From contig JBEKXP010000005.1 of NCBI GenBank assembly GCA_049511815.1, positions 1 to 35,751 on the forward strand: 35,751 nucleotides of DNA, read 5' to 3'. Within the stretch, counting starts at the first letter, position 1; every line of letters starts with the position of its first letter. A program made the translations under genes and the position numbers. Below are positions 4,322 through 35,198 of this stretch, one piece after another. This DNA is from Dehalococcoidia bacterium (lineage in GTDB: Bacteria > Chloroflexota > Dehalococcoidia > DSTF01 > JALHUB01). The notes under the pieces are model-generated. The model was given only the letters and a program-made list of their open reading frames with translations. It was not told where the DNA came from and did not search any database.

Positions 4322-6577
4322 ATGACGAAGAAAAAACAGAGAAACCTGGTGATTGTTGAGTCACCGGCGAAGGCGCGGACCTTGGCCGGTCTTTTGGGCC
4401 CGCAATACGACGTCCACGCCTCCATCGGCCACGTGCGCGACCTGCCGAAGACGAAGCTCGGCGTGGACATCGACGACGGCTTTGCGCCGCGTTACGTCGT
4501 CCCGCGCGAGAAGGCGAAGGTGGTGCGACTGCTCAAGGCGGCGGCGGAAGACGCCGACCGCGTCTTCCTGGCGACTGACCCCGATCGCGAAGGCGAGGCG
4601 ATAGCCTGGCATGTCCTCGAGGCCGTGGGGCTGGAGGGCAAGCCGCACCAGCGCGTCGTATTCCACGAAGTGACAAAAGACGCCGTCCTCGACGCCTTCG
4701 CGCATCCGCGCCAGATAAACGAGCGCCTCGTCGACGCCCAGCAGGCGCGCCGCATCCTGGACCGCCTCGTCGGCTACAAGATAAGCCCCGTGCTCTGGCA
4801 GAAGGTCCGGCGCGGGCTCTCAGCGGGACGCGTGCAGTCGGTGGCCGTGCGCATGGTGGTCGAGCGCGAGAAGGAGATAACCGCCTTCGTCCCGCTGGAG
4901 TACTGGACGCTCGACGCGCGCCTGGCGAAAGCGAAGGGCGAGGGGACGCTCACGGCGCGCCTGGCCGGATTGGCCGGCAAGCGCAAGAAACTGGAGATCG
5001 CCAGCGCCGCGGAGTCGGAACGGCTGGTCGCGCTTCTGCAACCGGCGCGCTTCACTGTCATTTCCGTCCGCAAGAAGGACGTCCGCCAGCAGCCGGCGCC
5101 TCCCTTCACGACCAGCAGTATGCAGCAAGAGGCGTCGCGGCGGCTCGGCTTTACGGCGAAGCGCACGATGGCCGTCGCGCAGCAGCTCTACGAGGGCCTT
5201 TCGGTCCGCGGCGGCCAGGTGGGCCTTATCACCTACATGCGCACCGACTCGACGAACGTGGCGGCGACGGCGCTGAGCGAGACGCGCGAGTACATCGCTG
5301 AGCGGTTCGGCGCTTCACTGGTCCCGGCGGCGCCGCGCGTCTTCCGTAAGAAGGCAAAAGGCGCGCAGGAGGCGCACGAGGCGATCCGCCCCACGTCGGT
5401 GCACCGCGAGCCCGCCTCACTGAAAACGGCGCTCAACCGCGACCAGCTACGCCTCTACACGCTCATCTGGCAGCGTATGGTCGCCAGCCAGATGGCAGAC
5501 GCCGTCTACGATCAGACTGCAGTCGAAATCGAGGCGCAGCCGAAGGAAGGAGCGGAGCGCTACCTGTTCCGCGCGGCGCGCAGCTTCCTGCGCTTCCCCG
5601 GCTATCGCCAGGTCTATCAGGAAGCCACGGAGGAGGAGGAAACGGAAGAGAAGCGCCCGCTGCCTGCTCTCAGCGAAGGCGAAGATCTTCACCTGCAGGA
5701 CCTTTTGCCGGAGCAGCACTTCACGGAGCCGCCTCCGCGCTTCACGGAGGCGACGCTAGTGAAAGCGATGGAAGAGAACGGCATTGGGCGGCCGAGCACT
5801 TACGCGCCCATCCTCTCGACGATCCAGGACCGCGGCTACGTCGAGAAGGAAGGCCGGGCGCTGAAGCCCAAAGAGCTCGGCGTCGTCGTCAACGATCTGC
5901 TGGTCAGCTACTTCCCGGAGATAACCGCCGTCAGCTTCACCGCTGGAATGGAAGAAGAGCTGGATGAGATCGCCGGCGGCCAGCGCGAATGGCAGCCGGT
6001 CGTGCGCGACTTCTATAAGCCGCTAGAGGCCGCGCTTTCGGCGGCGGAGGCGGCCCCGCGCGTCGAAGAGAAAACGAGCGAGGTCTGCGACAAGTGCGGC
6101 CGGCCGATGGTGATCCGCTGGGGTCGCTTCGGGCGCTTCCTGGCGTGCAGCGGCTTCCCGGAGTGCAAGAACAGCCGGCCCCTGGAGCGCCAAGAGGAAC
6201 CGGTCCAGGCAACGGACGAGATATGCCCCGTCTGCGGCAAGCCGATGGTCATCCGGCGCGGACGTTTTGGGCCTTTCCTGGCTTGCTCCGACTACCCCAC
6301 CTGTCGCGGCACGCGTCGAATTCTCAACAAGGTCGGCGTCGCCTGCCCGGAGTGCGGCGGCGATGTCGTCGCCAAACGGACCCGCAAGGGTCGCACCTTC
6401 TACGGCTGCGCCAACTACCCGAAGTGCCAGTTCACAAGCTGGTCGCGGCCGCTCGCGGAGCCTTGCCCCGAGTGCGGCGGCGTTGTCGTCGCGCAGGCTG
6501 GCGGCAAGGCGAAATGCTTGAAGTGCAATTGGCGTGGCGCGCTGCCGAAGCGCCAGCCGGCGGAGGCTAGGGCCTAG
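4322..6577 (+). CDS. topA: DNA topoisomerase I with four C-terminal Cys4 zinc ribbons
   Basis: TOPRIM N-terminus (LVIVESPAKARTL, DPDREGEAIAWH), the catalytic Tyr region (GLITYMRTDS) and repeated CxxC...CxxC modules are all present. Confidence 0.95.
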   Translation: MTKKKQRNLVIVESPAKARTLAGLLGPQYDVHASIGHVRDLPKTKLGVDIDDGFAPRYVVPREKAKVVRLLKAAAEDADRVFLATDPDREGEAIAWHVLEAVGLEGKPHQRVVFHEVTKDAVLDAFAHPRQINERLVDAQQARRILDRLVGYKISPVLWQKVRRGLSAGRVQSVAVRMVVEREKEITAFVPLEYWTLDARLAKAKGEGTLTARLAGLAGKRKKLEIASAAESERLVALLQPARFTVISVRKKDVRQQPAPPFTTSSMQQEASRRLGFTAKRTMAVAQQLYEGLSVRGGQVGLITYMRTDSTNVAATALSETREYIAERFGASLVPAAPRVFRKKAKGAQEAHEAIRPTSVHREPASLKTALNRDQLRLYTLIWQRMVASQMADAVYDQTAVEIEAQPKEGAERYLFRAARSFLRFPGYRQVYQEATEEEETEEKRPLPALSEGEDLHLQDLLPEQHFTEPPPRFTEATLVKAMEENGIGRPSTYAPILSTIQDRGYVEKEGRALKPKELGVVVNDLLVSYFPEITAVSFTAGMEEELDEIAGGQREWQPVVRDFYKPLEAALSAAEAAPRVEEKTSEVCDKCGRPMVIRWGRFGRFLACSGFPECKNSRPLERQEEPVQATDEICPVCGKPMVIRRGRFGPFLACSDYPTCRGTRRILNKVGVACPECGGDVVAKRTRKGRTFYGCANYPKCQFTSWSRPLAEPCPECGGVVVAQAGGKAKCLKCNWRGALPKRQPAEARA

Positions 6578-6581
6578 CGCG

Positions 6582-7604
6582 ATGAGCAAGGCAGCCAGCG
6601 ACAGGGAAGTCGAGGCAGGACGGCTCTCCGAAGAGTTGCTCGCGGCCTTCCTGGCGATGCTTGCCGCCGAGCGGAACCGCTCCGCCTACACGCTGCGGAA
6701 CTACGCGACGGACCTGCGCGCCTACTTCGCCTTCCTCGCCGACAAACACATCGACGTCGTCGCCGCGGACCGCCATACCGTTCGCGCCTATCTCGCAAGT
6801 CTGATAGACGCCGGCATCGCCCCCGGCAGCACCGCGCGCAAGCTAAGCACCCTGCGCTCGTTCTATCGCTTTCTCCAGCAGGACGAAAAGATCGCCGTCA
6901 ACCCATGCGAGGGGATGCGCGGCCCGAAGCAAGCGCGGCGGCTGCCTTCGTTCCTGACTGAAGAAGAGGTGTCGGCGCTTGTTCTGGCGCCGGAGCCGGA
7001 TACGCCGCAGGGACTGCGCAATCGGGCGCTGCTGGAGCTCCTGTACGCGGCTGGCGTGCGCGTCGGCGAGGTGTTCAATCTGAACGCAGGCGACCTGGAG
7101 CTTTCGCCGGAGGGCGGCTCTTTGCGAGTGCGCGGCAAGGGCAACAAGCAGCGGGTCGTCCTCATCGGGCGGCCGGCGGCGCGCGCCCTCAAGCGATACT
7201 TGCGGCAGAGCCGGCCCGATCTGGCAAAGGGCCCACAAGAGGCGCTGTTCCTCAATCGCGACGGCGAACGGCTGTCGACGCGCGCGGTTCAGACGATAGT
7301 GCGCAAGGCCGCGCTTGCGTCGGGCCTCGACCGGCGAACGCATCCCCACCTTCTCCGTCACACCTTCGCCACCCACATGCTCGACGGCGGCGCGGACCTG
7401 CGCGTCGTCCAGGAGTTGATGGGGCACGCCAGTGCCAACACGACCCAGATCTACCTGCATGTCACCGAGGCCCGCCAGCGCCAGGTCTACGACGGAGCCT
7501 GGGACGCCATGGCCGAGAGCTATCGCCGCATCGCTGACGAGCGCGCGGGCTCCCGGGAAAGCGACGAGCAAGAGGAGGGAACCGATGCGAATTCTGCTGA
7601 TTGA
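6582..7604 (+). CDS. xerC: Tyrosine recombinase of the XerC/XerD family
   Basis: Motifs seen: NRSAYTLRNYATDLRAYF, GVRVGE, HLLRHTFATHML, LMGHASANTTQIYLHV. The start is moved to the ATG at 6582, just after the topA stop. Confidence 0.85.
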   Translation: MSKAASDREVEAGRLSEELLAAFLAMLAAERNRSAYTLRNYATDLRAYFAFLADKHIDVVAADRHTVRAYLASLIDAGIAPGSTARKLSTLRSFYRFLQQDEKIAVNPCEGMRGPKQARRLPSFLTEEEVSALVLAPEPDTPQGLRNRALLELLYAAGVRVGEVFNLNAGDLELSPEGGSLRVRGKGNKQRVVLIGRPAARALKRYLRQSRPDLAKGPQEALFLNRDGERLSTRAVQTIVRKAALASGLDRRTHPHLLRHTFATHMLDGGADLRVVQELMGHASANTTQIYLHVTEARQRQVYDGAWDAMAESYRRIADERAGSRESDEQEEGTDANSAD

Positions 7605-25794: not shown

Positions 25795-25840
25795 GCTGGC
25801 TGGGGAGGGAGGATTCGAACCCCCGCATACGGATCCAGAG
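25795..25840. repeat. att core, left copy: an orphan 3' fragment of tRNA-Gln
   Basis: 46/46 identity to 35123-35168 by direct alignment. No 5' tRNA half is adjacent. Confidence 0.9.
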
Positions 25841-25959
25841 ACCGCCCCTGCCCATTATAACCAGCGGCAACTACTTGCCGCCAATACTTCATCGTATCTG
25901 TTTTTCGACTCTTCGGGTCGCCGTAACGGTACCTAACGGCAACTAGTTGCGGCCTTTGC

Positions 25960-25978
25960 GTTAGCATTTCCGTTAGCA
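25960..25978 (+). repeat. Paired GTTAGCA motifs (candidate arm-type recombinase sites), left end
   Basis: The left copy reads gttagcatttccgttagca. A similar pair, gttagcattctgttagca, lies at 35048-35065 in the same orientation. Confidence 0.5.
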
Positions 25979-26321
25979 GAAAGTCGTCGGCCGGGGTGTC
26001 GTGCGCTGGTGGCCTCTGGCAGTGATTCTCATCCGCCCGCATCCTTGCGGGCGTGCTATCAGTATCGTTCAGATGACCCCCCATCAACAACTTGACAAAT
26101 TATCCACTATTCGCCGGTTACGACTGTTCCGGCACTCCCCACGAAACCCCCGACCGACACGAGACTAAGACCAGGGAGGCGGGGCCAGTCTGTTAAACCT
26201 GTGGTGGCAGGAGAGAGAGGAAACGGCCCCAAACCTCCCGGCTGCAACGGCAACCTCACGGCGCCACCGGAAGGCCGGGGCCATCAAGACAAACGCCGTG
26301 AGTTACCGTTGCGAGGCGACT

Positions 26322-26576
26322 CTACAACTTGCCCTTGCGTCTGTCAAGCCTCTGAGAGCCCGATCTGGCCGTTTCCTCGAGCTGGGCAGTATCAGCACTA
26401 TCGGCCGCTGTCGCGCGTATGCTCACGATCGGCGCCGGCGGGCTCTGCATGACATCGTTGAGCGTCATCGAACCGTTTCCTGCTGCGACCTTGCGCCCGC
26501 AGATCAGGCAATGCGCGTCGAGGTCTTCATCAAGATACCAGCCGTGGCCATGACAATGCCCGCACCTGCTCGGCAA
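26322..26576 (-). CDS. Small Cys/His zinc-ribbon protein (84 aa, hypothetical)
   Basis: CGHCHGHGWYLDEDLDAHCLICG is present. A TTG start at 26576 follows SD AGGAGAGAG. The longer track ORF has no SD. Confidence 0.4.
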   Translation of the reverse strand: MPSRCGHCHGHGWYLDEDLDAHCLICGRKVAAGNGSMTLNDVMQSPPAPIVSIRATAADSADTAQLEETARSGSQRLDRRKGKL

Positions 26577-26608
26577 GGTCTCTCTCCTGCCTTGTGAACG
26601 CCTGGGCG

Positions 26609-26635
26609 TTTCGCTCCTAGTAACTAGGAGCGAAA
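26609..26635. promoter_or_regulatory. Strong 12-bp-stem hairpin between the tape-measure-like gene and the Zn-ribbon gene
   Basis: tttcgctcctag-taa-ctaggagcgaaa is a perfect inverted repeat. Confidence 0.5.
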
Positions 26636-26755
26636 AACGGGGCGGGAGGCTAGACGGCAAAATAGCGCCCTGCCGGGGGAGCGGTAGGAGTGACCGCTCA
26701 TTATGGCAGCGCGGCCGTGGAACTCGACTGCGCCAGCACACCCCGGCAGGACCCT

Positions 26756-28309
26756 CTATCCTCGCGCCTCCAACTCGGCCCAGATGTCCCTTGTCGAAAG
26801 CGTCTGCGGCCGAATGTTGATCGTCCCGCCGTAGATCGTCAGATGGTGGCCGCCCATGTCCTTTGACTCGGCATTGCTGTAGACACGACTTCCACCGGGT
26901 AGGGCTACGGTCTCAGGGCCAGCTTCGCCGACTTCGAAGAGCCCGCTGTAGGGCGTCATACCGCCGCTGGCATACTTCAGTTTCGGGCCACCAGGCACCG
27001 TCTCCTTTTCGCCACCACCGCCGCCGCCGAACAGATCCTCCAGCTTTGAGACGCCGGGAATCTTGCCGAGCGCGTCCCCAAGGTCGCCCACGTGACCGAG
27101 AAGATCCTCAATCTTGCCACCCAGGTCCGGTATTGACCACTCAAGCCCGGCTACGATGTCCGCCCAGCCCCCCATCGGAATGTTCAGCAGATCGAGAGCA
27201 TCGGTGAGCAGCGGGAGTGTGCTAACGGCGAGATGATCAACCGAAATCCCGAGGTTGTGGGTCGCTATGTCGTAGGAAGTCGCCTTCTGGTTCGCGTTGT
27301 CGAACTCAGCGGCGGTATCGGCCGTCTGCTGGTTCACCGTGGGCAGCAAGTCGCTATAGTTCTGAACTACCGGCATCAGCGAGGTCCTGAGCCCGCGCGA
27401 GAATATCGTGGATATGTAGTCCGCCGCGAGCGTGTTGTCGTGCAGGCCGACGAGCTTGGTCATGATCTGATCGAAGATGTCGATGGTGGGGAGCGCGTTC
27501 CCGTTGGTGTCGAGCATCGTAACGCCGAGATGGGCCATTGTTGTCGCAAACGCCGAAGAGTCGGTCTTCCCCGACTGAGCCGCCAACGCGTAGGTCTGCA
27601 CCTTGTTCGTCAGCATCGTCACACCCAGCTGGGCAGCCCCCAGGGAAGAGTGAACGTCAGCCAACATATTGCTCCAGAAAGCCGTCTCTTCGGCGGAGGC
27701 CTGCGTAGCGTCCTCGAACTGCATGGCGGTGTTCTCGAAGTTGCCTCCGAGTACACCGAGAGCACCGACGGCTGTAATCCCCGCCGCCGCGATGCCCAGA
27801 ATGCCGCCAGCAGCATCATCAAGACTGCCGGAGTTAACCAAGTCATCAAGGGCACCTCCCATGCCCGAAATGCCGCCCACGACCGGCCCGAGGTCGCTGT
27901 CTAGGCCACCAAGGGCGCTGCCAAGTTCGCCAGCGCCGGACGCCGCGCCCCCAAAGCCGCCGCTGGCATCGTCAGCCGAACTTGCAGCACCAGCGAGCCC
28001 CGAATCAGCCGCGCTACCAGCGCCGGAAAGCGCCTCCAGTTGACTGGCGGTCTCATCACTGACGACGCCAAGATTGCCAACTGAAGCGTAGGCTTCTTCC
28101 GCGCCCGCTTGCGCTGCCAGTCCGCCAGCTCCGGCGTCCTGCGCGGAAGCGCCGAAGTCGTCGAGTTGGCCTTGGGCGTCTGCTAGAGACGATTGGTCAA
28201 CCGCCTCCATTGCGCTCTGAGTGTCGCCCAGCTTGCCGTTCAACTCCTCAAGCGCCGCTTGAGCATCACCGGAGTCGGCCGTGATGTTGAGGGATAGGTC
28301 CATAGTCAT
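26756..28309 (-). CDS. Tape-measure-like protein (517 aa)
   Basis: The N-terminal half is Ala/Gly/Ser/Asp-rich and helical. A hydrophobic Gly-rich segment (GGILGIAAAGITAVGALGVLGG) is present. The C-terminal motif GLFEVGEAGPETVALPGGSRVYSN resembles one that, from memory, recurs in tail tape-measure proteins. SD AGGAGG lies 5 nt upstream. Confidence 0.55.
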   Translation of the reverse strand: MTMDLSLNITADSGDAQAALEELNGKLGDTQSAMEAVDQSSLADAQGQLDDFGASAQDAGAGGLAAQAGAEEAYASVGNLGVVSDETASQLEALSGAGSAADSGLAGAASSADDASGGFGGAASGAGELGSALGGLDSDLGPVVGGISGMGGALDDLVNSGSLDDAAGGILGIAAAGITAVGALGVLGGNFENTAMQFEDATQASAEETAFWSNMLADVHSSLGAAQLGVTMLTNKVQTYALAAQSGKTDSSAFATTMAHLGVTMLDTNGNALPTIDIFDQIMTKLVGLHDNTLAADYISTIFSRGLRTSLMPVVQNYSDLLPTVNQQTADTAAEFDNANQKATSYDIATHNLGISVDHLAVSTLPLLTDALDLLNIPMGGWADIVAGLEWSIPDLGGKIEDLLGHVGDLGDALGKIPGVSKLEDLFGGGGGGEKETVPGGPKLKYASGGMTPYSGLFEVGEAGPETVALPGGSRVYSNAESKDMGGHHLTIYGGTINIRPQTLSTRDIWAELEARG

Positions 28310-28318
28310 GTCAGCCTC

Positions 28319-28657
28319 CTAGTTAAGCACCTTACCCGGCGGCGGCGGCGCGCCGGTGATGACGCCGCCGGTGCTCCCGTAGTCGCCCGCATGGGGAAGC
28401 GCGTTCGTCGCATTGCCGATGACCTGCTGTCGCTCGCGTTCCGGCAGGCCGTGTCTTGCCTCAAAGGAACGCCCATCGACCAGGAGGTGCTGGTGTTCCT
28501 CAATCTCGAACTTTGTCTTGGCGTCGAGTTGGCGGTAATCGACGCGCACGGCGCCCACGCGCGGCACAGCGCCGATAGTCTTGATGTCGTCAATGACGTT
28601 GGCCAAGCAGCCCGGCGCCATCGTGATCAAGTGCATGTTCTGCTGTCCCTTAGCCAT
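28319..28657 (-). CDS. Hypothetical protein (112 aa)
   Basis: SD GAGGAGG lies 9 nt upstream of the ATG. The gene overlaps the upstream gene by 8 nt. Its stop lies inside the SD of the next gene. Confidence 0.55.
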   Translation of the reverse strand: MAKGQQNMHLITMAPGCLANVIDDIKTIGAVPRVGAVRVDYRQLDAKTKFEIEEHQHLLVDGRSFEARHGLPERERQQVIGNATNALPHAGDYGSTGGVITGAPPPPGKVLN

Positions 28658-29210
28658 GAGCGACTACCTCCTCTGTGATTCGGCGGCGAATCTGTCCGCC
28701 GGGAAAGCCCTCACGCTCTGCGAGCCCGAGCGCCTCTAGTTCGGTAAGTCTTTCGACCTGCGCCGTCGCTGCGGTAGCGACTCTGTTCTGGCGACGATTG
28801 AGAAGCGTAACACGCTCCGCAAACAGCGATTGGAACTTGGCCTCTGCCGGGCCGATCTCTTCGTCAATCTCGTCTAGTCTTTCACTGTCTACTTCATCCT
28901 GGGCAGCATCGAGGGCGACGTTGAGGTCATCTACCCGGAGTTTCACCACGTCGCGTTGGGCCAGAATCCCCCGCCGCTGGCCGGCGAGTTTGCCGAGCGC
29001 CGCCTCGATCCTTTCCACTGTGCTCTCGGCCTCCAGATCGTCGCAGCCCCACCTCAGGCGCTCCGCCTCTAACCGCTGGCCAAGCAGGACTCGCTCTTCG
29101 GCGTCCACTGACGCGAGCCGGTCCTCAAGCTTGCGGCTCTCCTTCTCTGCCTGCCCGAGTTCTCCCTGAATTGTGCCGACTTCCTTCTCTGCTTTGGACA
29201 TATCCTTCAC
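28650..29210 (-). CDS. Coiled-coil protein (186 aa; scaffold- or Sid-like role is speculative)
   Basis: Heptad-rich, highly charged sequence (AEKEVGTIQGELGQAEKESRKLEDRLASVDAEERVLLGQRLEAERL...). The start is GTG at 29210 or ATG at 29201. Confidence 0.6.
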   Translation of the reverse strand: MKDMSKAEKEVGTIQGELGQAEKESRKLEDRLASVDAEERVLLGQRLEAERLRWGCDDLEAESTVERIEAALGKLAGQRRGILAQRDVVKLRVDDLNVALDAAQDEVDSERLDEIDEEIGPAEAKFQSLFAERVTLLNRRQNRVATAATAQVERLTELEALGLAEREGFPGGQIRRRITEEVVAHG

Positions 29211-29213
29211 CCC

Positions 29214-29636
29214 CTATGGCGTTCCGCCGGACTGAATGTTTGCCCACGAGTGAGTAGCATCGACCCAGAAGAAGACTCTTCCCACCTTCAGATCGTTGGT
29301 TGTGGTCGAAATGAGAGCGACCGTGCCGGAGTCCAACAGATAGACGGCACTCCCGCAAGATTGCTGGCTCAGTGGCTCCGTGTTCATCAAGAAAGGCCCC
29401 CCCGACTGTACCTTGCACTTCTTCACACCAGCGGTTGTACTGGTGATGTTTTCGTCAGCAACGCCACAGTAGATGCAGGACGCCGTGTCCGCGCCGACAA
29501 CGAGATAGCCGGTTGACGGGTCAATCATGACGTGTGAGCCTTTGTAGATTCGCTGGTTCGCGGCGACAAGGTAGCTCGTGTAGACCGGCGAGCACTTGAC
29601 AACGACATCGCGGTCTGCAACCAGTGCTGGGGTCAT
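29214..29636 (-). CDS. Beta-rich 140-aa protein, tentatively DUF2190-like (head decoration/cement family)
   Basis: The pattern IYKGSHVMID..G......GVADENI....G...CKVQSGGPF.......G.AVYLLDSGTV.....LKVGRV recalls DUF2190. SD GGGGAG is present. An ATGA overlap joins it to the upstream gene. Confidence 0.5.
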   Translation of the reverse strand: MTPALVADRDVVVKCSPVYTSYLVAANQRIYKGSHVMIDPSTGYLVVGADTASCIYCGVADENITSTTAGVKKCKVQSGGPFLMNTEPLSQQSCGSAVYLLDSGTVALISTTTNDLKVGRVFFWVDATHSWANIQSGGTP

Positions 29637-29818
29637 CGCTCACTCCCCTTCGCCCGCTCATCATCCTCTCGGGTCTCAAGGTAGCGCTTCGCTTCGGCCA
29701 GCCTTTCAGCGCCGACGGCGATCTCTGTCTCAGAGGCACCGGCCGCCTCAAGATTGGCGAGTTCGTCTTCGGCTGAACGGACACGATATGCCGCGTCTTC
29801 AAGTACGGTCCGCGTCAT
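29633..29818 (-). CDS. Small acidic helical protein (61 aa, hypothetical)
   Basis: SD GGAGGG lies 6 nt upstream. ATGA start/stop overlaps occur on both sides. The longer track ORF (to 30016) overlaps the 78-aa gene out of frame. Confidence 0.5.
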   Translation of the reverse strand: MTRTVLEDAAYRVRSAEDELANLEAAGASETEIAVGAERLAEAKRYLETREDDERAKGSER

Positions 29819-30051
29819 CGTCTGCCCTCCAGTAGGTGCGCTTCCATTTTCTCCGCCCAAGCGTCGTTTTCGGACACGACGACCCCAATCCACGGTTGAT
29901 TGCAGGTGTGCACGATGCTCTTCTCCTGTTCGGTAAGTTCGACCGTCCTCACCGGCGCATCGTCGGCAAGATATCTGTCCGTCGCCCGCCGCAACCCCTC
30001 TGTCAACAGACGCCATGCCTCGTTGGTGATGATCATTGTGTTTCTACTCAT
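29815..30051 (-). CDS. Hypothetical protein (78 aa)
   Basis: SD AAGGAGG lies 6 nt upstream. An ATGA overlap joins it to the 211-aa gene. Confidence 0.55.
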   Translation of the reverse strand: MSRNTMIITNEAWRLLTEGLRRATDRYLADDAPVRTVELTEQEKSIVHTCNQPWIGVVVSENDAWAEKMEAHLLEGRR

Positions 30052-30683
30052 GATTGACCTCCTTCGCTTATGATGCTTTCTGCTTCCTGAATCAGTTGTT
30101 GCTCGGGTGTCGGCTGGCGCCCCTCTGTAGACGGCGCCACCTGCTGGTCATCGGCCAGCACGGTGTCTATTAACCACAGCCAGCACTTCGGAGGCATCGC
30201 GAAGTTCGGATCATCAAGGTTGCAGGCGCCGCCGCCACGAACGTCAGGGCGCGCTGGTAGCGCCCGCTCGATGGTGATGAGCATTGAGTCAATCTTGTCG
30301 ATGGCCTTCGACCGCCGGCTCTCGTTGCCAGAAGTGCCGAGAATGCCTTTGCGGTCGCACTCGATGAGCAAGTTCTCTTTCATGATCCGCCGCTCCGCGA
30401 GCATCCGCAGCAGGTTGTCCGTATCGTCGCCTAGCCACGGCCGGCGCTGGCGCTCCAGGCGAACCAAACGGCGCACTCTCTTGCCCAATTTGGCCCTTAT
30501 ACTGGCGGCATTTGCGGGACTGGCATTCAGGCCATGTTTCAAGGCGGCCGTCTGCCGCTGGGCGAGCTGGACCGGACTTAGTGACGGCGGATTATCAGTC
30601 CGTTTGCTGGCCTCTTTTAGGTTCGTTTTCGCCCGCCTGCTAACGCGTTGCTCACGGGATGTTTGCGAAGTAGTTACAGTCAT
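30048..30683 (-). CDS. Hypothetical basic protein (211 aa); a small-terminase-like or DNA-binding role is speculative
   Basis: The N-terminal third is Arg/Lys-rich. It is the first long gene of the coupled chain. No diagnostic motif was recognised. Confidence 0.55.
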   Translation of the reverse strand: MTVTTSQTSREQRVSRRAKTNLKEASKRTDNPPSLSPVQLAQRQTAALKHGLNASPANAASIRAKLGKRVRRLVRLERQRRPWLGDDTDNLLRMLAERRIMKENLLIECDRKGILGTSGNESRRSKAIDKIDSMLITIERALPARPDVRGGGACNLDDPNFAMPPKCWLWLIDTVLADDQQVAPSTEGRQPTPEQQLIQEAESIISEGGQS

Positions 30684-30707
30684 AGGTTCGCCTTTCGTTC
30701 TGCGCGT

Positions 30708-30941
30708 TCACGTCTGTATGAACAGCACGCGCCCCTTTGGAGCCAGTAAAGCCGCTAATTTGGCATAGACTTCAGGCGCGATGTGCCGGGTGTAAAATGC
30801 CACGTCACGCTTACTCGGCGGGAAGCGTTCCCACTCACAGCGCGGCTCATAGTGAGGCAAATCGCCGGGAGACACTTCCAGCACGGCGTCAACGGAGTTG
30901 CCCGAAGGTAGAGTCCAACTTCCCAGCAGTAGGCGTCTCAT
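30708..30941 (-). CDS. Hypothetical protein (77 aa)
   Basis: An ORF with a GGAG motif 7 nt upstream. No family was recognised. Confidence 0.4.
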   Translation of the reverse strand: MRRLLLGSWTLPSGNSVDAVLEVSPGDLPHYEPRCEWERFPPSKRDVAFYTRHIAPEVYAKLAALLAPKGRVLFIQT

Positions 30942-30955
30942 CTCAGCACTCCGAC

Positions 30956-31002
30956 GGTTTCTGTTGGTGATCCAGTACTATGATGTAGTACTGGCAGAAA
31001 CC
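30956..31002. promoter_or_regulatory. Compound palindrome in an AT-rich gap (candidate ori, operator or terminator)
   Basis: ggtttctg...ccagtacta-tgatg-tagtactgg-cagaaacc, followed by tttttc. Hand count for 30961-31020 gives about 40% G+C. Confidence 0.5.
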
Positions 31003-31092
31003 TTTTTCTCTATTCTCAGATTCAGGGGGTGCCGCTTCCCCGTTTCTTTCTGCCGGAACTACTTTCCTAGTAATAGAGAGCAACAGCATTTC

Positions 31093-32886
31093 TTACAGAC
31101 TCCCCCAGTAGCGGAACGGCTTGCCGCGTTTCCCCTCGCCGCACCTTTGCACCTTGCCTTCCGTCATCAAGTCTTTCAGCGCCCCTTGCAGAGTGCTGGG
31201 CAGAATGTCAGCGACAGCGAACTTGGCGTCGGCGAGTGCCACGTCAGTCTTAGAGCCGAGCGCCCGATACTCGATGTCGAGCTCGATAACCAGCGTGTCG
31301 GGCGTCTCATCGAAGCGTGAGAGGGCATGCAGCACGCGGACGTTAGGCTTGGCGTTTCCCTCAGAGCGCTTGAGTGACAACACGATATCGGCGGCGGCGG
31401 CAAATGCCGTGCTACCACGTCCTGACTCGCCGACTTCCCCGCCGCCCTTGCGCTCGTGGCGCACCTGGAGGACGGCCAGGCCCAAGGCAGCGGCGAACAG
31501 TAGCGGCTCCATAGCCTCAAGGCCGGAGCCTGATTGATTCTCCTCTTCTCCCTTCAGTCCGGCGAATTGCGAGAGCGTGTCCACAACCAGCAGGCGGGCG
31601 CCGACACGCTGGCACTCGGCAACGGCGGCGTCAACGATATCCGGCCATTTCATGCCCTTCGTATCGTGGTAGTAGAGGACGTGTAGCGACTCACATTCCA
31701 ACAGCCCGGCACGGCGGAGGTGTTCGCGGAATGTTCGGGGGCGTTCCTCTGTGAGATAGACAACGGGTGTTCCTGCCGCCTGCTCGCCTAGAAACTCCCC
31801 GCCGTTAAGACAGGCGGCTATCATGCGCATGATCAGGGTGGTTTTCCCGCTGGCCTTCAACTTGCCGGTTAGTTCTGTCACACTCCCGGCGGCAAGCCAC
31901 GGCTTCGCGATCCACTCGACTTGAGGCGAGACTTGGGCGGCGATCTCAGCGCCGGTCCAGAACCGGAGCGGGGGCGCCTCTTTGTTGTCCGCGTTCCCCC
32001 GCTTTGCCGCTTCCTTTTTCCAGAAGTCGGAAACCATGCGGGCGACTTCAGCGGCGGGCAGCGGCGGTGGGCCACAGCGGGCCACGTTCCAATTCAAACT
32101 GGCGTCTAGGGCCGCCTGCTGGCCGTCCTGCCAGAAGCGTGCCACCGAGAGCCCGACAACCCGCTTAGCCTTCTCATGGCGCGTTCCTACGGGCGCGTCC
32201 TCTGCCAGGAGACGGGCAGCGCTGTCGCCGCCGACGATAAGCCCGTCCTCTTCGGACTTGCCGTCACGTGGTAGCCGAACATCATTCGGGTCCGTCAGCG
32301 TCAGCGCGTCTAGGAATTCATCAACTGTCCAGGGCGTGCCGGTGGTAGGGTCAAGCATGACGCGGCGCCCGTTGCCGTTCGGCCCGAAGTAGGGCAGGTT
32401 AACGTAGTTGCCGAAGCCGCCCGCGTCTACGCTGTCCTGTTTCGGGAAAACCTCGGTATCGGCTGGCAGTCCGGCGTCGGCTATCGCCCTTGCCGCCACT
32501 CGCCGCGCCCAAGCCGCCTCTACGGGCTCCCGGTAGAACACCCAGACGTGATGGCCCTTAGACTTGCTTCTCTCAATGAACGGGCAGCAGCCGAGGCGAC
32601 GTAGGGAATCATACAGCTTCAGCGCCTTCCCCCATTGCACGAGGTCGGGCTCCCCCTCAAGGTCAAGGTCGATGCATTCCCAGAAGCAAAGGTTGCCGTC
32701 AGTCACGGGGTAGACGCCAATCGCGTTTTCGCCCGCCAGGTGGCGCGCCATAACTTCGAGCGTCAGGGGTTCCTTATTGCAATAGCCCTCGCCCTCGCCG
32801 TAGCAGTCGCGTCGCCCGTCGAAAAGCGTCAATAAGGCCCCGGCGACCTCGATTTGCGATTCGTCAAGGAAGGTTGATACGGGCAT
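31093..32886 (-). CDS. Replication protein: AEP primase-polymerase, PriCT-like linker and RecA-like (AAA_25/DnaB-like) ATPase
   Basis: AEP motifs CIDLDLEG, SKSKGHHVWVFY and EVFPKQ...GNYVNLPYFG are present. Walker A is GKLKASGKTT and Walker B is LLVVDTLSQF. Confidence 0.8.
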   Translation of the reverse strand: MPVSTFLDESQIEVAGALLTLFDGRRDCYGEGEGYCNKEPLTLEVMARHLAGENAIGVYPVTDGNLCFWECIDLDLEGEPDLVQWGKALKLYDSLRRLGCCPFIERSKSKGHHVWVFYREPVEAAWARRVAARAIADAGLPADTEVFPKQDSVDAGGFGNYVNLPYFGPNGNGRRVMLDPTTGTPWTVDEFLDALTLTDPNDVRLPRDGKSEEDGLIVGGDSAARLLAEDAPVGTRHEKAKRVVGLSVARFWQDGQQAALDASLNWNVARCGPPPLPAAEVARMVSDFWKKEAAKRGNADNKEAPPLRFWTGAEIAAQVSPQVEWIAKPWLAAGSVTELTGKLKASGKTTLIMRMIAACLNGGEFLGEQAAGTPVVYLTEERPRTFREHLRRAGLLECESLHVLYYHDTKGMKWPDIVDAAVAECQRVGARLLVVDTLSQFAGLKGEEENQSGSGLEAMEPLLFAAALGLAVLQVRHERKGGGEVGESGRGSTAFAAAADIVLSLKRSEGNAKPNVRVLHALSRFDETPDTLVIELDIEYRALGSKTDVALADAKFAVADILPSTLQGALKDLMTEGKVQRCGEGKRGKPFRYWGSL

Positions 32887-32893
32887 CGCGCGT

Positions 32894-33094
32894 TTAGGCG
32901 CCCTCCGCTTGCGGCGTGCTTCCGTTCAGCAGGGCCTCTAGTCGCGCGCGGGGGATCAGAATCCTTCGGCCGATACGGAGTGAAGGTATGTCGCCGCGAT
33001 AGACGCCCTCATATGCGCTCCGAACCGACAGTCCGAGGAGGTGAGCTGTCTCCTCAACAGTAAACACTGGCTTCGCTTCAACTGCCGCTACCAT
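32894..33094 (-). CDS. Excisionase-family (MerR-like) helix-turn-helix DNA-binding protein
   Basis: FTVEETAHLLGLSVRSAYEGVYRGDIPSLRIGRRILIPRARLEALL. Confidence 0.8.
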   Translation of the reverse strand: MVAAVEAKPVFTVEETAHLLGLSVRSAYEGVYRGDIPSLRIGRRILIPRARLEALLNGSTPQAEGA

Positions 33095-33277: not shown

Positions 33278-33898
33278 ATGGGGCGACCGAGGACTGAAGA
33301 ATATTGGATACGGCCCATCAATTACCTAGCGGAGAACGATAAGAAACTCGGGCCAAAGGCCATCCACGCGATACTTGAGAAGAGTGCAACTGACGCGGGT
33401 CAGTCCCATCGTCTCAAGAGCATGCCGAGCCTCAGAACAATCGCGCGCAGAAAGCAGGAATATCTCGACCGCGCGAGCGAAGAGGAGCGCCAGCGCAACC
33501 GCCATGTCCACTGGCCAGACGACATGGGCCTCGTGCTGCCATGGGAGGCAGGCCCCGCCGTGCTAGAACTCCTTAAGTGGCGCCGGGATCACTGGCTGGC
33601 TCGCCCCGCTGTTACTGAAGCCTATTGGTTTTGGCGGGTTACGGCAGTCGTGCCAGCGGCGAACTTCGATTATCGCTTGAAGGCGGCAAGGATTCTTGGC
33701 AGAGACGATGGGCAGATGAAACGGGCCGTCGAGCTATGGCTGGTTTACGGGGGTCCGTTCGCGGGGCCGGATCGGGTGGTCTACGAGGATCGCCTGAGGG
33801 GTACGCCCGAGTTCCCCGGCGACGTGGAAATCGACATAGAGGGGAAAGACATCATAGACGCCATTTACGAGGGCATGGCGAAAGGAGGCCAGTGGTGA
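33278..33898 (+). CDS. Hypothetical protein (206 aa) translationally coupled to the integrase
   Basis: SD-like GGGGG lies 5 nt upstream. Its TGA stop overlaps the integrase GTG (GTGA). A possible HTH occurs near PSLRTIARRKQEY. No family was recognised. Confidence 0.6.
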   Translation: MGRPRTEEYWIRPINYLAENDKKLGPKAIHAILEKSATDAGQSHRLKSMPSLRTIARRKQEYLDRASEEERQRNRHVHWPDDMGLVLPWEAGPAVLELLKWRRDHWLARPAVTEAYWFWRVTAVVPAANFDYRLKAARILGRDDGQMKRAVELWLVYGGPFAGPDRVVYEDRLRGTPEFPGDVEIDIEGKDIIDAIYEGMAKGGQW

Positions 33899-35037
33899 AA
33901 GGCAGCGTAAAGAAGCGCGGCAAGACGTGGCGGATCATCGTTGACATCGGGCGCGACGAGAACGGCAAGCGCCAGCAGAAATGGTATAGCGGCTTCGCCA
34001 CGCGAAGGGCAGCCGAAGCGAAGCTAACCGAGATAAAGGCGTCCCTCCAAAGCGGCGAGTACGTAGAGCCGAGCAAGCGGACGCTTGGGGCCTTCCTTGT
34101 GAAAGAATGGCTGCCCTCTATCGCGGCGTCAGTCCGGCCGTCAACCTCCACGGCTTACAAGATGATATGCGACAAGCGTATCGTGCCCACGCTGGGGAGC
34201 GTGCCCTTGCAGCAACTCAGCGCCGACCAGCTAAACAAGTTGTACGCGCAACTGTTGGCAAACGGGCGCACCAAAAGCAAAGGTGCCCTCAGCCCGCGCA
34301 GCGTGCGCTACGTCCATGCCACCATCCACAAGGCTTTGTCCGACGCCGTAAAGTGGCAGAAGATTCCGCGCAACGTCGCCGACAGCGCTACGCCGCCGAG
34401 ACGCCAGTCGAAAAAGCCGAAGACATGGACGGCAAGCGAGCTCCGGACCTTCCTCGAACACGTCGAGGGCGGCCGTCTCTATGCCGCCTACCTACTCGCT
34501 GCCAGCACGGGCTTACGCCGTGGCGAACTGCTAGGCTTGCGCTGGCGTGACGTAGACATGGAAGCGGGCAGCCTGGCCGTTGTGCAAACACTCTTACAGG
34601 TCAATAACAAACTCGACTTCGGTACGCCGAAGACGGAGAAGGGAAGCCGAAACGTCTGGTTAGACACTCACACAGTTGCCGCCCTACGGTCCCACAGACG
34701 GACACAGGTGGCCGAAAGGCTGGCGTGGGGGCCGGAATACCAGGACAACGACTTGGTTTTCGCCCGTGAGGACGGTACGCCCATACACCCGGACGGCTTC
34801 GGCCGTACCTTCGCCCGTCACGCTAAAGCGGCGGCGCTGCCCACTATCCGCCTTCACGATCTCAGGCACACCCATGCGACGCTGGCGCTTCAGGCGGGCA
34901 TTCCCGCCAAAGTGGTCAGCGAACGGCTCGGCCATGCGAGCATCAGCATTACGTTGGATATCTACAGCCACGTGCTACCGGGGATGCAGGAAGAGGCCGC
35001 GCAGACGGTTGCCGACTTGGTGTTTGCCAACGGCTAG
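33895..35037 (+). CDS. int: Tyrosine-type phage integrase
   Basis: N-terminal SAM-like arm (KKRGKTWRIIVDIGRDENGKRQQKWYSGF) is present. Catalytic motifs are GLRRGELLGLRW, HDLRHTHATLAL and LGHASISITLDIYSHV. SD AAAGGAGG lies 6 nt before the GTG at 33895. Confidence 0.9.
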   Translation: MKGSVKKRGKTWRIIVDIGRDENGKRQQKWYSGFATRRAAEAKLTEIKASLQSGEYVEPSKRTLGAFLVKEWLPSIAASVRPSTSTAYKMICDKRIVPTLGSVPLQQLSADQLNKLYAQLLANGRTKSKGALSPRSVRYVHATIHKALSDAVKWQKIPRNVADSATPPRRQSKKPKTWTASELRTFLEHVEGGRLYAAYLLAASTGLRRGELLGLRWRDVDMEAGSLAVVQTLLQVNNKLDFGTPKTEKGSRNVWLDTHTVAALRSHRRTQVAERLAWGPEYQDNDLVFAREDGTPIHPDGFGRTFARHAKAAALPTIRLHDLRHTHATLALQAGIPAKVVSERLGHASISITLDIYSHVLPGMQEEAAQTVADLVFANG

Positions 35038-35122: not shown

Positions 35123-35168
35123 GCTGGCTGGGGAGGGAGGATTCGAACCCCCGCATACGGATCCAGAG
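35123..35168. repeat. att core, right copy (inside intact tRNA-Gln)
   Basis: 46/46 identity to 25795-25840. Confidence 0.9.
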
Positions 35169-35198
35169 TCCGCTGTCCTACCACTAGACGACTCCCCA
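35125..35198 (-). tRNA. tRNA-Gln (anticodon CUG), CCA encoded
   Basis: Hand-folded cloverleaf: acceptor TGGGGAG/CTCCCCA (U1-A72), D arm GTCT/GGAC, anticodon stem GCGGA/TCCGT with loop CTCTGGA, T arm GGGGG-TTCGAAT-CCTCC, discriminator G. Confidence 0.9.

Follow-up and report, generated by a model that had tools for sequence, protein, structure and literature searches.

A candidate PICI-like phage satellite with a capsid cement gene and a shortened tape measure gene in a Dehalococcoidia bacterium

The DNA studied here is a stretch of 35,751 bp (hereafter the window), which is the whole of contig JBEKXP010000005.1 and part of the metagenome-assembled genome (MAG) of a Dehalococcoidia bacterium. 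Two of its proteins are tagged ABSG55_00810 and ABSG55_00840 at NCBI. Between positions 26,322 and 30,941 the window carries nine genes on the minus strand, g77 to g84. We consider it probable that this region is the "hijacking" operon of a 9.3-kb phage satellite, which resembles the chromosomal islands of the phage-inducible type (PICIs) and is integrated at a tRNA-Gln gene. The original prediction had proposed a candidate phage satellite of P4-like logic at this place. The first part of the proposal has stood, as the region belongs to a small integrated element that is neither debris nor an actinomycete integrative and conjugative element (AICE) and is probably a satellite, whereas several protein roles and the likeness to P4 had to be corrected.

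Packaging and virion genes of the module

The boundaries of the element were located by a repeat search. Two 51-nt direct repeats, identical at 50 of 51 positions, lie 9,328 bp apart, and the nine-gene module therefore sits within a precisely delimited integrated element. The predicted size of 9.3 kb was exact. The G+C content of the window is 64–72% across positions 1–25,600 and 58–63% from about 25.8 kb on. The boundaries and the genes of the module, in the order of their transcription, are given below; loci with an L number are contigs retrieved in the homology searches.

25795..25845, no strand: attL, 51-nt direct repeat copying the 3′ part of tRNA-Gln (50/51 to 35123–35173)
35123..35173, no strand: attR, 51-nt repeat that is the 3′ part of tRNA-Gln(CTG); the tRNA lies at 35125–35198 on the minus strand
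30708..30941, minus: g77, small conserved protein encoded at the start of the operon (86% identical in L016, 46% in L013)
30048..30683, minus: g211, 211 aa, probable divergent small terminase, P27/Terminase_4-like (family and fold matches)
29815..30051, minus: g78, small protein (AAGGAGG Shine-Dalgarno motif, ATGA overlap; positional counterpart in L016; 34% to a gene of L037, E 2e-4)
29633..29818, minus: g61, small conserved protein (48% identical to b73 of L016 in the same position; ATGA overlap at each end)
29214..29636, minus: g140, 140 aa, capsid cement (decoration) protein with a gpD-like fold (E 2e-17 to PHROG 1731, "virion structural protein")
28650..29210, minus: g186, helical coiled-coil-like protein (weak matches to coiled-coil families)
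28319..28657, minus: g112, conserved, directly 5′ of the tape measure gene (same-position homologues in L016, 38%, and L038, 38–42%)
26756..28309, minus: g517, shortened tail tape measure protein (TMP), 517 aa (homology to the 738-aa TMP-position protein of phage L001/L002)
26322..26576, minus: g84, small CxxC...CxxC zinc-ribbon protein, TTG start (ORF with AGGAGAG Shine-Dalgarno motif, 179 nt after g517)

All nine predicted ORFs are present. The ATGA overlaps at 30048–30051, 29815–29818 and 29633–29636 and the 8-nt overlap at 28650–28657 were found again, and so were the Shine-Dalgarno motifs 5′ of the starts of g78 (AAGGAGG), g61 (GGAGGG), g140 (GGGGAG), g112 (GAGGAGG) and g517 (AGGAGG). The successive intergenic gaps are 24, −4, −4, −4, +3, −8, +9 and +179 nt. 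Tight packing, claimed for all nine genes, thus holds for eight that are tightly coupled, while the ninth, g84, lies looser at a distance of 179 nt. That the genes are real and not ORFs that arose by chance is borne out by the independent, divergent contig L016. It carries homologues of six module genes in the same order, with 38–86% amino acid identity and dN/dS values of 0.22–0.52, which are rough as the synonymous sites are near saturation. In addition, the DNA of L036, a contig recovered from a different sample, shows 99.94% identity over 1.6 kb.

The gene g517 encodes the large protein of the module, which had been called "structural-like". Its product is not a Sid-like capsid protein; it is a tape measure protein, shortened, with both termini of the TMP of a phage lineage kept. 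Residues 1–372 align with the first 320 aa of the 738-aa protein of phage L001 with 33% identity (E 2e-33), and in the C-terminal part residues 449–503 align with residues 680–722 of that protein. The N-terminal motif M-x-MDLSL-x-I-x-GDS and the C-terminal motif GG-x-x-x-Y-x-GL are common to both. The 738-aa protein matches several PHROG TMP families (best 5.6e-10), and g517 contains one hydrophobic segment at about residues 169–188, as is typical of TMPs. About 360 central residues of the phage TMP are gone from g517, and about 77 stand in their place. The product of g517 also shares 49% identity over its full length with P0012 (578 aa) of a second Dehalococcoidia element, L013. A scan of genome contigs with the TMP alignment gave no match. 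Tail length is proportional to TMP length, at about 1.5 Å per residue. From the difference in length between the two proteins, the tail of the satellite is therefore predicted to measure about 78 nm compared with about 111 nm, which is roughly 30% shorter.

The product of g140 is a full-length gpD-like capsid cement protein. The earlier description of this protein as decoration-like is borne out by the match to PHROG 1731, by the position of the homologous genes in phages and by structural comparison. All homologues located on long contigs (L001–L011; 55–70% identity) are flanked by a gene for a Mu-like protease/scaffold and one for a Mu gpT-like major capsid protein. These contigs are complete-looking phage genomes, which also encode terminase, Mu-type portal, connectors and tail genes. 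The AF2 model of g140 (pLDDT 77) matches in Foldseek the cement/decoration proteins of T1, FCWL1, Pam3, HFTV1 and phiCD508, the base of phi29 gp8.5, lambda gpD and P21 SHP. Three satellite copies of the cement protein cluster with one paralogue of L005 (copy 2) in a simple neighbour-joining tree without bootstrap support. Across the elements the cement gene occupies three different slots in the operon, L037 and L038 differing from the window, and it is absent from L016. In GenBank phages the cement protein has just a 33% match (Alteromonadaceae phage B23), and no homologue of the TMP was found there. Some phages of the L001 lineage possess two or three paralogous cement genes, some of them in tandem (L003, 7687–8557 and 10408–10911; L005, 9548–10423). 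The portal of L001/L002 (4803–8144) is a 1,113-aa protein that combines ART-PolyVal (ADP-ribosyltransferase), Mu-type portal and P23-45 barrel domains; the portals of other members of the lineage have 745–761 aa and are devoid of ART-PolyVal.

The third gene with a probable packaging or virion role is g211, which lacks hits in the word-indexed protein database and by itself stays below the Pfam thresholds. An exhaustive phmmer search of 1.84 billion representatives yielded 8 relatives, and three of the nine members of the resulting family match Pfam Terminase_6/Terminase_4 at about 1e-5. Small terminases (P27/COG3747) make up most of the top BFVD matches of the AF2 model (pLDDT 72); these matches are weak (best E 1.5e-3), and a Foldseek comparison with the PDB gave zero matches. 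Transitive homology and these fold matches lend moderate support to the assignment of g211 as a P27-type small terminase (TerS), which it probably is. The statement that the module lacks a terminase thus remains valid for the large subunit and probably not for the small one.

Integration, replication and the nature of the element

The part of the element 5′ of the operon encodes integration and replication functions, and two non-coding features accompany the module.

33895..35037, plus: tyrosine integrase (Pfam Arm-DNA-bind_4, Phage_int_SAM_3 and Phage_integrase; 43% identical to the integrase of L035)
33278..33898, plus: g206, translationally coupled to the integrase (no family match)
32894..33094, minus: HTH_17 (MerR/excisionase-type) regulator or Xis, 66 aa (Pfam PF12728, E 4.9e-12; 45% identical to its L035 equivalent)
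31093..32886, minus: AEP primase fused to AAA_25 helicase, replication (Pfam AEP-TOTE 6.7e-25, AAA_25 3.5e-19; PHROG primase families)
30972..31060, minus: conserved non-coding region 5′ of g77, putative promoter/operator for the module (over 90 nt, 75.6% identical to the sequence 5′ of b77 in L016)
26612..26632, no strand: perfect palindrome with 9-bp arms, CGCTCCTAG-TTA-CTAGGAGCG, between g517 and g84 (read from the sequence)

The AEP-TOTE match confirms the predicted primase type. Given the intact att repeats, the tyrosine integrase, the HTH_17 regulator or Xis and an own AEP primase-helicase, excision and replication of the element are plausible. Searches of the element with Pfam, PHROGs, NCBIfam and PADLOC detected neither a large terminase nor genes for portal, major capsid, tail tube or lysis, and neither conjugation genes nor known defence genes, which agrees with the original prediction for portal, major capsid, lysis and conjugation genes. 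A holin-like membrane protein was not found either. Lacking the large terminase, the virion and lysis genes just named and any transfer ATPase, the element can neither make particles by itself nor conjugate by itself.

A backbone of integrase, Xis and primase-helicase is common in integrative mobilisable elements (IMEs), and homologues of g77 accompany AAA_25 helicases in heterogeneous small elements. The window might accordingly contain an IME or AICE-like element that spreads by conjugation or another non-phage route and carries the phage-like genes as cargo. However, no ORF of the element shows a relaxase or FtsK/TraB-type ATPase domain, and neither a coupling protein nor an oriT-associated family came to light. 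What the family conserves is exactly the operon related to packaging and the virion. Conjugative or mobilisable transfer has no support, and we regard an IME as improbable.

The shared genes of the satellite and the phages indicate where a helper may be sought. The cement and TMP genes are the sole genes common to the element and the phages L001–L011 in tblastn and hhalign comparisons; the replication, TerS and integrase genes are unrelated to the phage lineage. The homology of these two genes points to a specific uncultured siphovirus-like lineage with Mu-type heads as the candidate helper. We propose that, upon helper infection or induction, the TerS encoded by g211 would pair with the large terminase of the helper and direct the packaging of satellite DNA. 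The product of g140 would bind and stabilise the capsids that take satellite DNA, and g186 would possibly help to re-size them. The product of g517, perhaps with that of g112 as chaperone, would displace the TMP of the helper, giving satellite particles with chimeric, shorter tails. The inverted-repeat region 5′ of g77 is the likely switch that would turn the operon on. A more far-reaching proposal, which we put forward only tentatively, is that an unrecognised family of Chloroflexota satellites builds doubly chimeric virions with its own cement protein and a drastically shortened TMP, served by g112 as chaperone, and that the cement gene is a movable cassette within this family.

The presence of two structural genes of one phage lineage could also be explained by decay, with the cement and TMP genes left over from the structural operon of a Mu-head prophage. 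It agrees with this explanation that the nearest phage homologues of both genes belong to one lineage. The original prediction had itself named fragments of head and tail genes, a cryptic terminase, portal and capsid set and a transfer ATPase as findings that would speak against a satellite. The phage genes were found to be full-length, conserved and translationally coupled, and neither such a set nor a transfer ATPase was detected. The integrase is intact, as are the att repeats, and the space between the cement and TMP genes holds no fragments of capsid, portal, protease, connector or tail genes. At least five independent elements share this reduced gene set, which, with dN/dS below 1, is kept by purifying selection. 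The three positions of the cement gene and its single absence imply gain or shuffling and not decay, and the replication, TerS and integrase genes have no kinship with the phage lineage. For these reasons a decayed prophage is very unlikely and the explanation is largely refuted.

The same two genes might serve the host instead. According to this explanation the element is a host-protecting integrative island that is not packaged itself, and its cement protein and truncated TMP act as dominant-negative decoys against the assembly of Mu-head phages. The loss of the central residues of the TMP with both interaction ends kept is what would be expected of a competitive inhibitor, interference with tail assembly is known from PICIs and from PLE11 (PMC11364771, PMC12987554), and no evidence of encapsidation was found in IMG/VR. 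On the other hand, such an island would leave unexplained the TerS-like gene conserved in every relative, the large terminase of L013 and L025 and the dedicated replication module, and no PADLOC family was matched. Moreover, interference and an own TMP coexist with transduction in PLEs, so that this explanation overlaps with a satellite more than it excludes one. We consider the decoy function unlikely as an account of the element.

Several observations weigh against the assignment as a PICI-like satellite. The phages with homologous cement and TMP genes have a TerS/TerL region unrelated to g211, and the TerS assignment of g211 itself relies on transitive homology and weak fold matches. The shared cos/pac-like DNA looked for between the element and the candidate helper phages did not appear; blastn returned just the coding similarity of the cement gene. 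IMG/VR scans with TMP, g77 and TerS queries were empty, with no sign of encapsidated element DNA, and the scan with the cement alignment returned two phage contigs, both previously found. Every relative of the element is a metagenomic fragment. Seven genes, g77, g78, g61, g186, g112, g84 and g206, are without an assignable function. Finally, no prophage is present on the contig, the rest of which is housekeeping. In this host part (positions 1–25,600), ten large ORFs were scanned, and they include genes for TopA, an XerC/D-type recombinase, an M24 peptidase, XseA, PolA and a beta-eliminating lyase. The XerC/D-type tyrosine recombinase gene at 6534–7604 adjoins topA; it looks like the chromosomal dimer-resolution gene and not like part of a mobile element.

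Related elements and the remaining genes

The search for related elements suggested with the original prediction was successful: at least five other metagenomic elements have the module in common with the window, with dN/dS values of about 0.2–0.5. Their gene contents are as follows, where x stands for a further gene.

L016: g77, TerS, x, g61, coiled-coil, g112, TMP; cement gene absent
L017-19 (three samples): AAA_25 helicase, TerS, x, coiled-coil
L035: integrase (43% to that of the window), x, HTH_17 (45%), different primase-helicase (PrimPol/D5_N), zinc ribbon, TerS
L037: g78-like, cement (64%), coiled-coil
L038: coiled-coil, cement (60%), g112-like, TMP
L012-15/L032: second Dehalococcoidia MAG (SPRUCE 355)

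The element of the SPRUCE 355 MAG (L013) is 13.9 kb long and bounded by perfect 44-nt repeats at tRNA-Pro. It encodes homologues of g77 (46%), of the TerS (31%) and, as described above, of the TMP. It further has a Toprim primase, a number of CxxC proteins and a large terminase, while genes for a portal or a capsid were again not found. The slot that holds g78 to g112 in the window is occupied in L013 (7627–9488) by genes for three consecutive CxxC-motif proteins of 203, 178 and 232 aa. The 178- and 232-aa proteins are paralogous, with about 42% amino acid identity and a 77-nt DNA repeat in common.

The first gene of the operon, g77, seems to be part of a replication/regulation backbone. Another 12 metagenome loci contain a homologue, in every case next to an AAA_25 helicase and/or an integrase, and a scan of genome contigs with g77 returned only the SPRUCE 355 MAG. 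Genes of the g77 family mark a wider, heterogeneous set of small elements with integrase and AAA_25 helicase from soil and peat metagenomes (L025, L026, L027 and L029). In L025 (1467–6724), a large terminase with TerL_ATPase and TerL_nuclease domains follows directly after g77-like and zinc-ribbon genes. This set suggests the existence of further satellite-like families.

The unassigned genes between g211 and g517 have relatives in other elements. For g61, the homologue in L016 favours the 61-aa start over a 127-aa ORF. Homologues of g186 are present in L016 (40%), L017-19 (HMM E 3.6e-6), L037 and L038, and a possible function is that of a scaffold, perhaps Sid-like as suggested for the coiled-coil protein in the original prediction, or of a size-determination factor. 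The gene g112 stands in the position of a chaperone gene relative to the TMP gene, and a tail assembly chaperone is a possible function of its product. No similarity of g112 to chaperones was detected, and searches of Pfam, PHROG and PDB sequences gave no match. A frameshift of the G/GT type that would join g186 and g112 was considered and discarded, as the frame downstream is +1 and L016 does not conserve the overlap. In Pfam, PHROGs, NCBIfam and PADLOC nothing usable was obtained for g77, g78, g61, g186, g112, g84 and g206. PDB sequence searches were empty for g112 and also for the profiles of the cement, TerS, TMP and g77 families. When the unassigned proteins of the element were compared by hhalign with profiles of every gene of the L001-lineage phages, all probabilities were at most 10%, and neither homology of g186 to a scaffold nor of g112 to a chaperone was found.

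The last gene, g84, is the least certain of the module, owing to the 179-nt gap and to homologue searches that came back empty. A similar small zinc-ribbon gene, a59, ends the module of L013. The palindrome at 26612–26632 could be a terminator-like hairpin or a site for protein binding or packaging. A second inverted repeat of 15 nt (26664–26678 / 26741–26755) lies in the same gap between g517 and g84. Neither repeat has a T-run, and they are thus not canonical terminators; both might serve protein binding or packaging. The following 475 bp or so between g84 and attL (25846–26321) are apparently non-coding, with a sigma-70-like match at 26347–26319 on the minus strand; the stretch 25846–26321 has no Rfam match and no similarity to any retrieved relative locus.

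The region 30972–31060 is the sole conserved non-coding stretch that was found. It is AT-richer and carries the inverted repeat GTACTA-N5-TAGTAC at 30975–30991 and a conserved GAATCTGA-AGAGAAAAAG-TTTC stretch. The region is a plausible and likely promoter/operator of the operon. At the other end of the element, the true start of the integrase is probably the GTG at 33895, giving about 380 aa. The stop of g206 overlaps this start (GTGA), 3′ of an AAGGAGG motif. In L035 (1247–2086) a 279-aa gene occupies the equivalent slot and is likewise translationally coupled to the integrase, and no similarity was detectable between its product and the 206-aa product of g206. Both may be element-specific regulators or recombination directionality factors.

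Novelty of the element and comparison with known satellites

Most of the known phage satellites come from Proteobacteria and Firmicutes, and a few come from Actinobacteria. To our knowledge, there are almost no cultured phages of Chloroflexota. No published proposal of a phage satellite in this phylum was found in the literature searched, and the element is apparently the first to be proposed for Chloroflexota. No homology links its proteins to a satellite family described so far. The original prediction had called the family undescribed. This is appropriate for the sequence family and the phylum and not for the architecture, which is the known PICI layout, nor for TMP-bearing satellites, which were described in 2025–2026. 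Satellite-encoded TMPs were shown in 2026 for the PLEs of Vibrio (PMC12987554) and proposed in 2025 for the EPIPs of mycobacteria (PMC12822802). If the proposed function is true, its occurrence in an unrelated element of a distant phylum, which combines a TMP with a helper-type cement protein and a TerS, would suggest tail piracy by TMP substitution to be a general, convergently evolved strategy of satellites. The homology of the cement protein and the TMP also gives a handle on phage-host links in Dehalococcoidia of peat and soil.

The integrase, primase-helicase and capsid-decorating protein on a small satellite are common to the element and P4, the model of the original prediction. In contrast to the element, P4 has neither a TerS nor a TMP. 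The cement protein described here is a direct homologue of that of the phage lineage itself, whereas Psu is a satellite-specific invention. No Pfam, PHROG or NCBIfam match to Psu, Sid, Delta, Epsilon or alpha of P4 was obtained in the element. With g211 as a likely TerS and g517 as a TMP, the element is nearer to PICIs and SaPIs, with their TerS redirection, and to PLEs and EPIPs, with their own TMPs and chimeric tails.

The core set of PICIs consists of an integrase, a regulator, a primase-replicase (pri-rep), a capsid-morphogenesis gene and a TerS, and half of them are no longer than 9.5 kb, their median size (PMC10085698). The element of the window, at 9.3 kb, is chromosomally integrated next to a tRNA gene, with the integrase at one end, a putative HTH_17 regulator, a primase-replicase and a late operon with TerS-like and capsid-related genes. 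This layout is that of PICIs including SaPIs and Gram-negative PICIs, which likewise have no capsid, portal or lysis genes. The HTH_17 protein stands where the regulation module of a PICI (an alpA, merR or stl homologue) is expected; the AlpA family itself was not matched. No match was found to a capsid-morphogenesis gene of the cpm, ppi or rpp type, and the cement and coiled-coil proteins present instead could be functional analogues. The element differs from PICIs in that its cement protein is not Cpm, Ppi or Rpp, in its Chloroflexota host and in the lack, beyond generic domains, of any protein homologous to known PICI proteins. It also differs in the TMP homologue g517, as tail genes are "forbidden" in the PICI model of SatelliteFinder. 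Tools that disqualify tail genes would systematically miss elements of this class.

Capsid-forming PICIs (cf-PICIs) offer a partial parallel. Putative tmp genes occur in some of them as well (PMC12987554, Extended Data Fig. 10), and the relative L013 has a large terminase. They differ in having their own capsid, portal, protease and connectors, none of which is present in the element or in L013. IME1 of Dehalococcoides is an element of 21–28 kb with an XerCD-type recombinase as its first gene, a pI-like ATPase, a large metallophosphoesterase-like CDS and a terminal Cro/CI repressor (bioRxiv 10.64898/2026.09.15.751708). It was rejected as a counterpart of the 9.3-kb element, as the primase-helicase is the only common feature.

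The EPIP satellites of Mycolicibacterium carry a TerS and a TMP (preprint PMC12822802). At about 11 kb they also encode a scaffold-like protein, are devoid of tail tube and lysis genes and are proposed to alter both capsid and tail, in all of which they resemble the element. They encode a serine integrase, head-tail adaptor and stopper proteins and a capsid-like protein, whereas the element has a tyrosine integrase together with an AEP primase-helicase and a cement protein. EPIPs have been isolated as particles, while the element is known from sequence.

The PLEs of Vibrio cholerae (PLE11 and others) encode their own TMP, chaperone and hub and form chimeric, shorter tails (PMC12987554; Mathur, Boyd et al., Nature 2026). 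The element, too, has a shorter TMP of its own; the small gene beside it could encode a chaperone, and a chimeric tail is predicted for the element. In both systems the TMP is distant from that of the helper type, with 20% identity in PLEs compared with 33% here. The shortening amounts to about 220 aa here and to 95 aa in PLEs. The helper of PLEs is a lytic myovirus, whereas the phages related to the element look like siphoviruses with Mu-type heads. There is no sequence kinship between the two, and no homologue of the baseplate hub or Rta was recognised here, so that the likeness would be one of mechanism and not of family. The kind of element, a PICI-type satellite with TMP-mediated tail piracy, is already known. 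New here, as judged by computation, is that a helper-type cement protein occurs together with a strongly shortened TMP and a probable TerS in an element without a capsid gene and in a new phylum.

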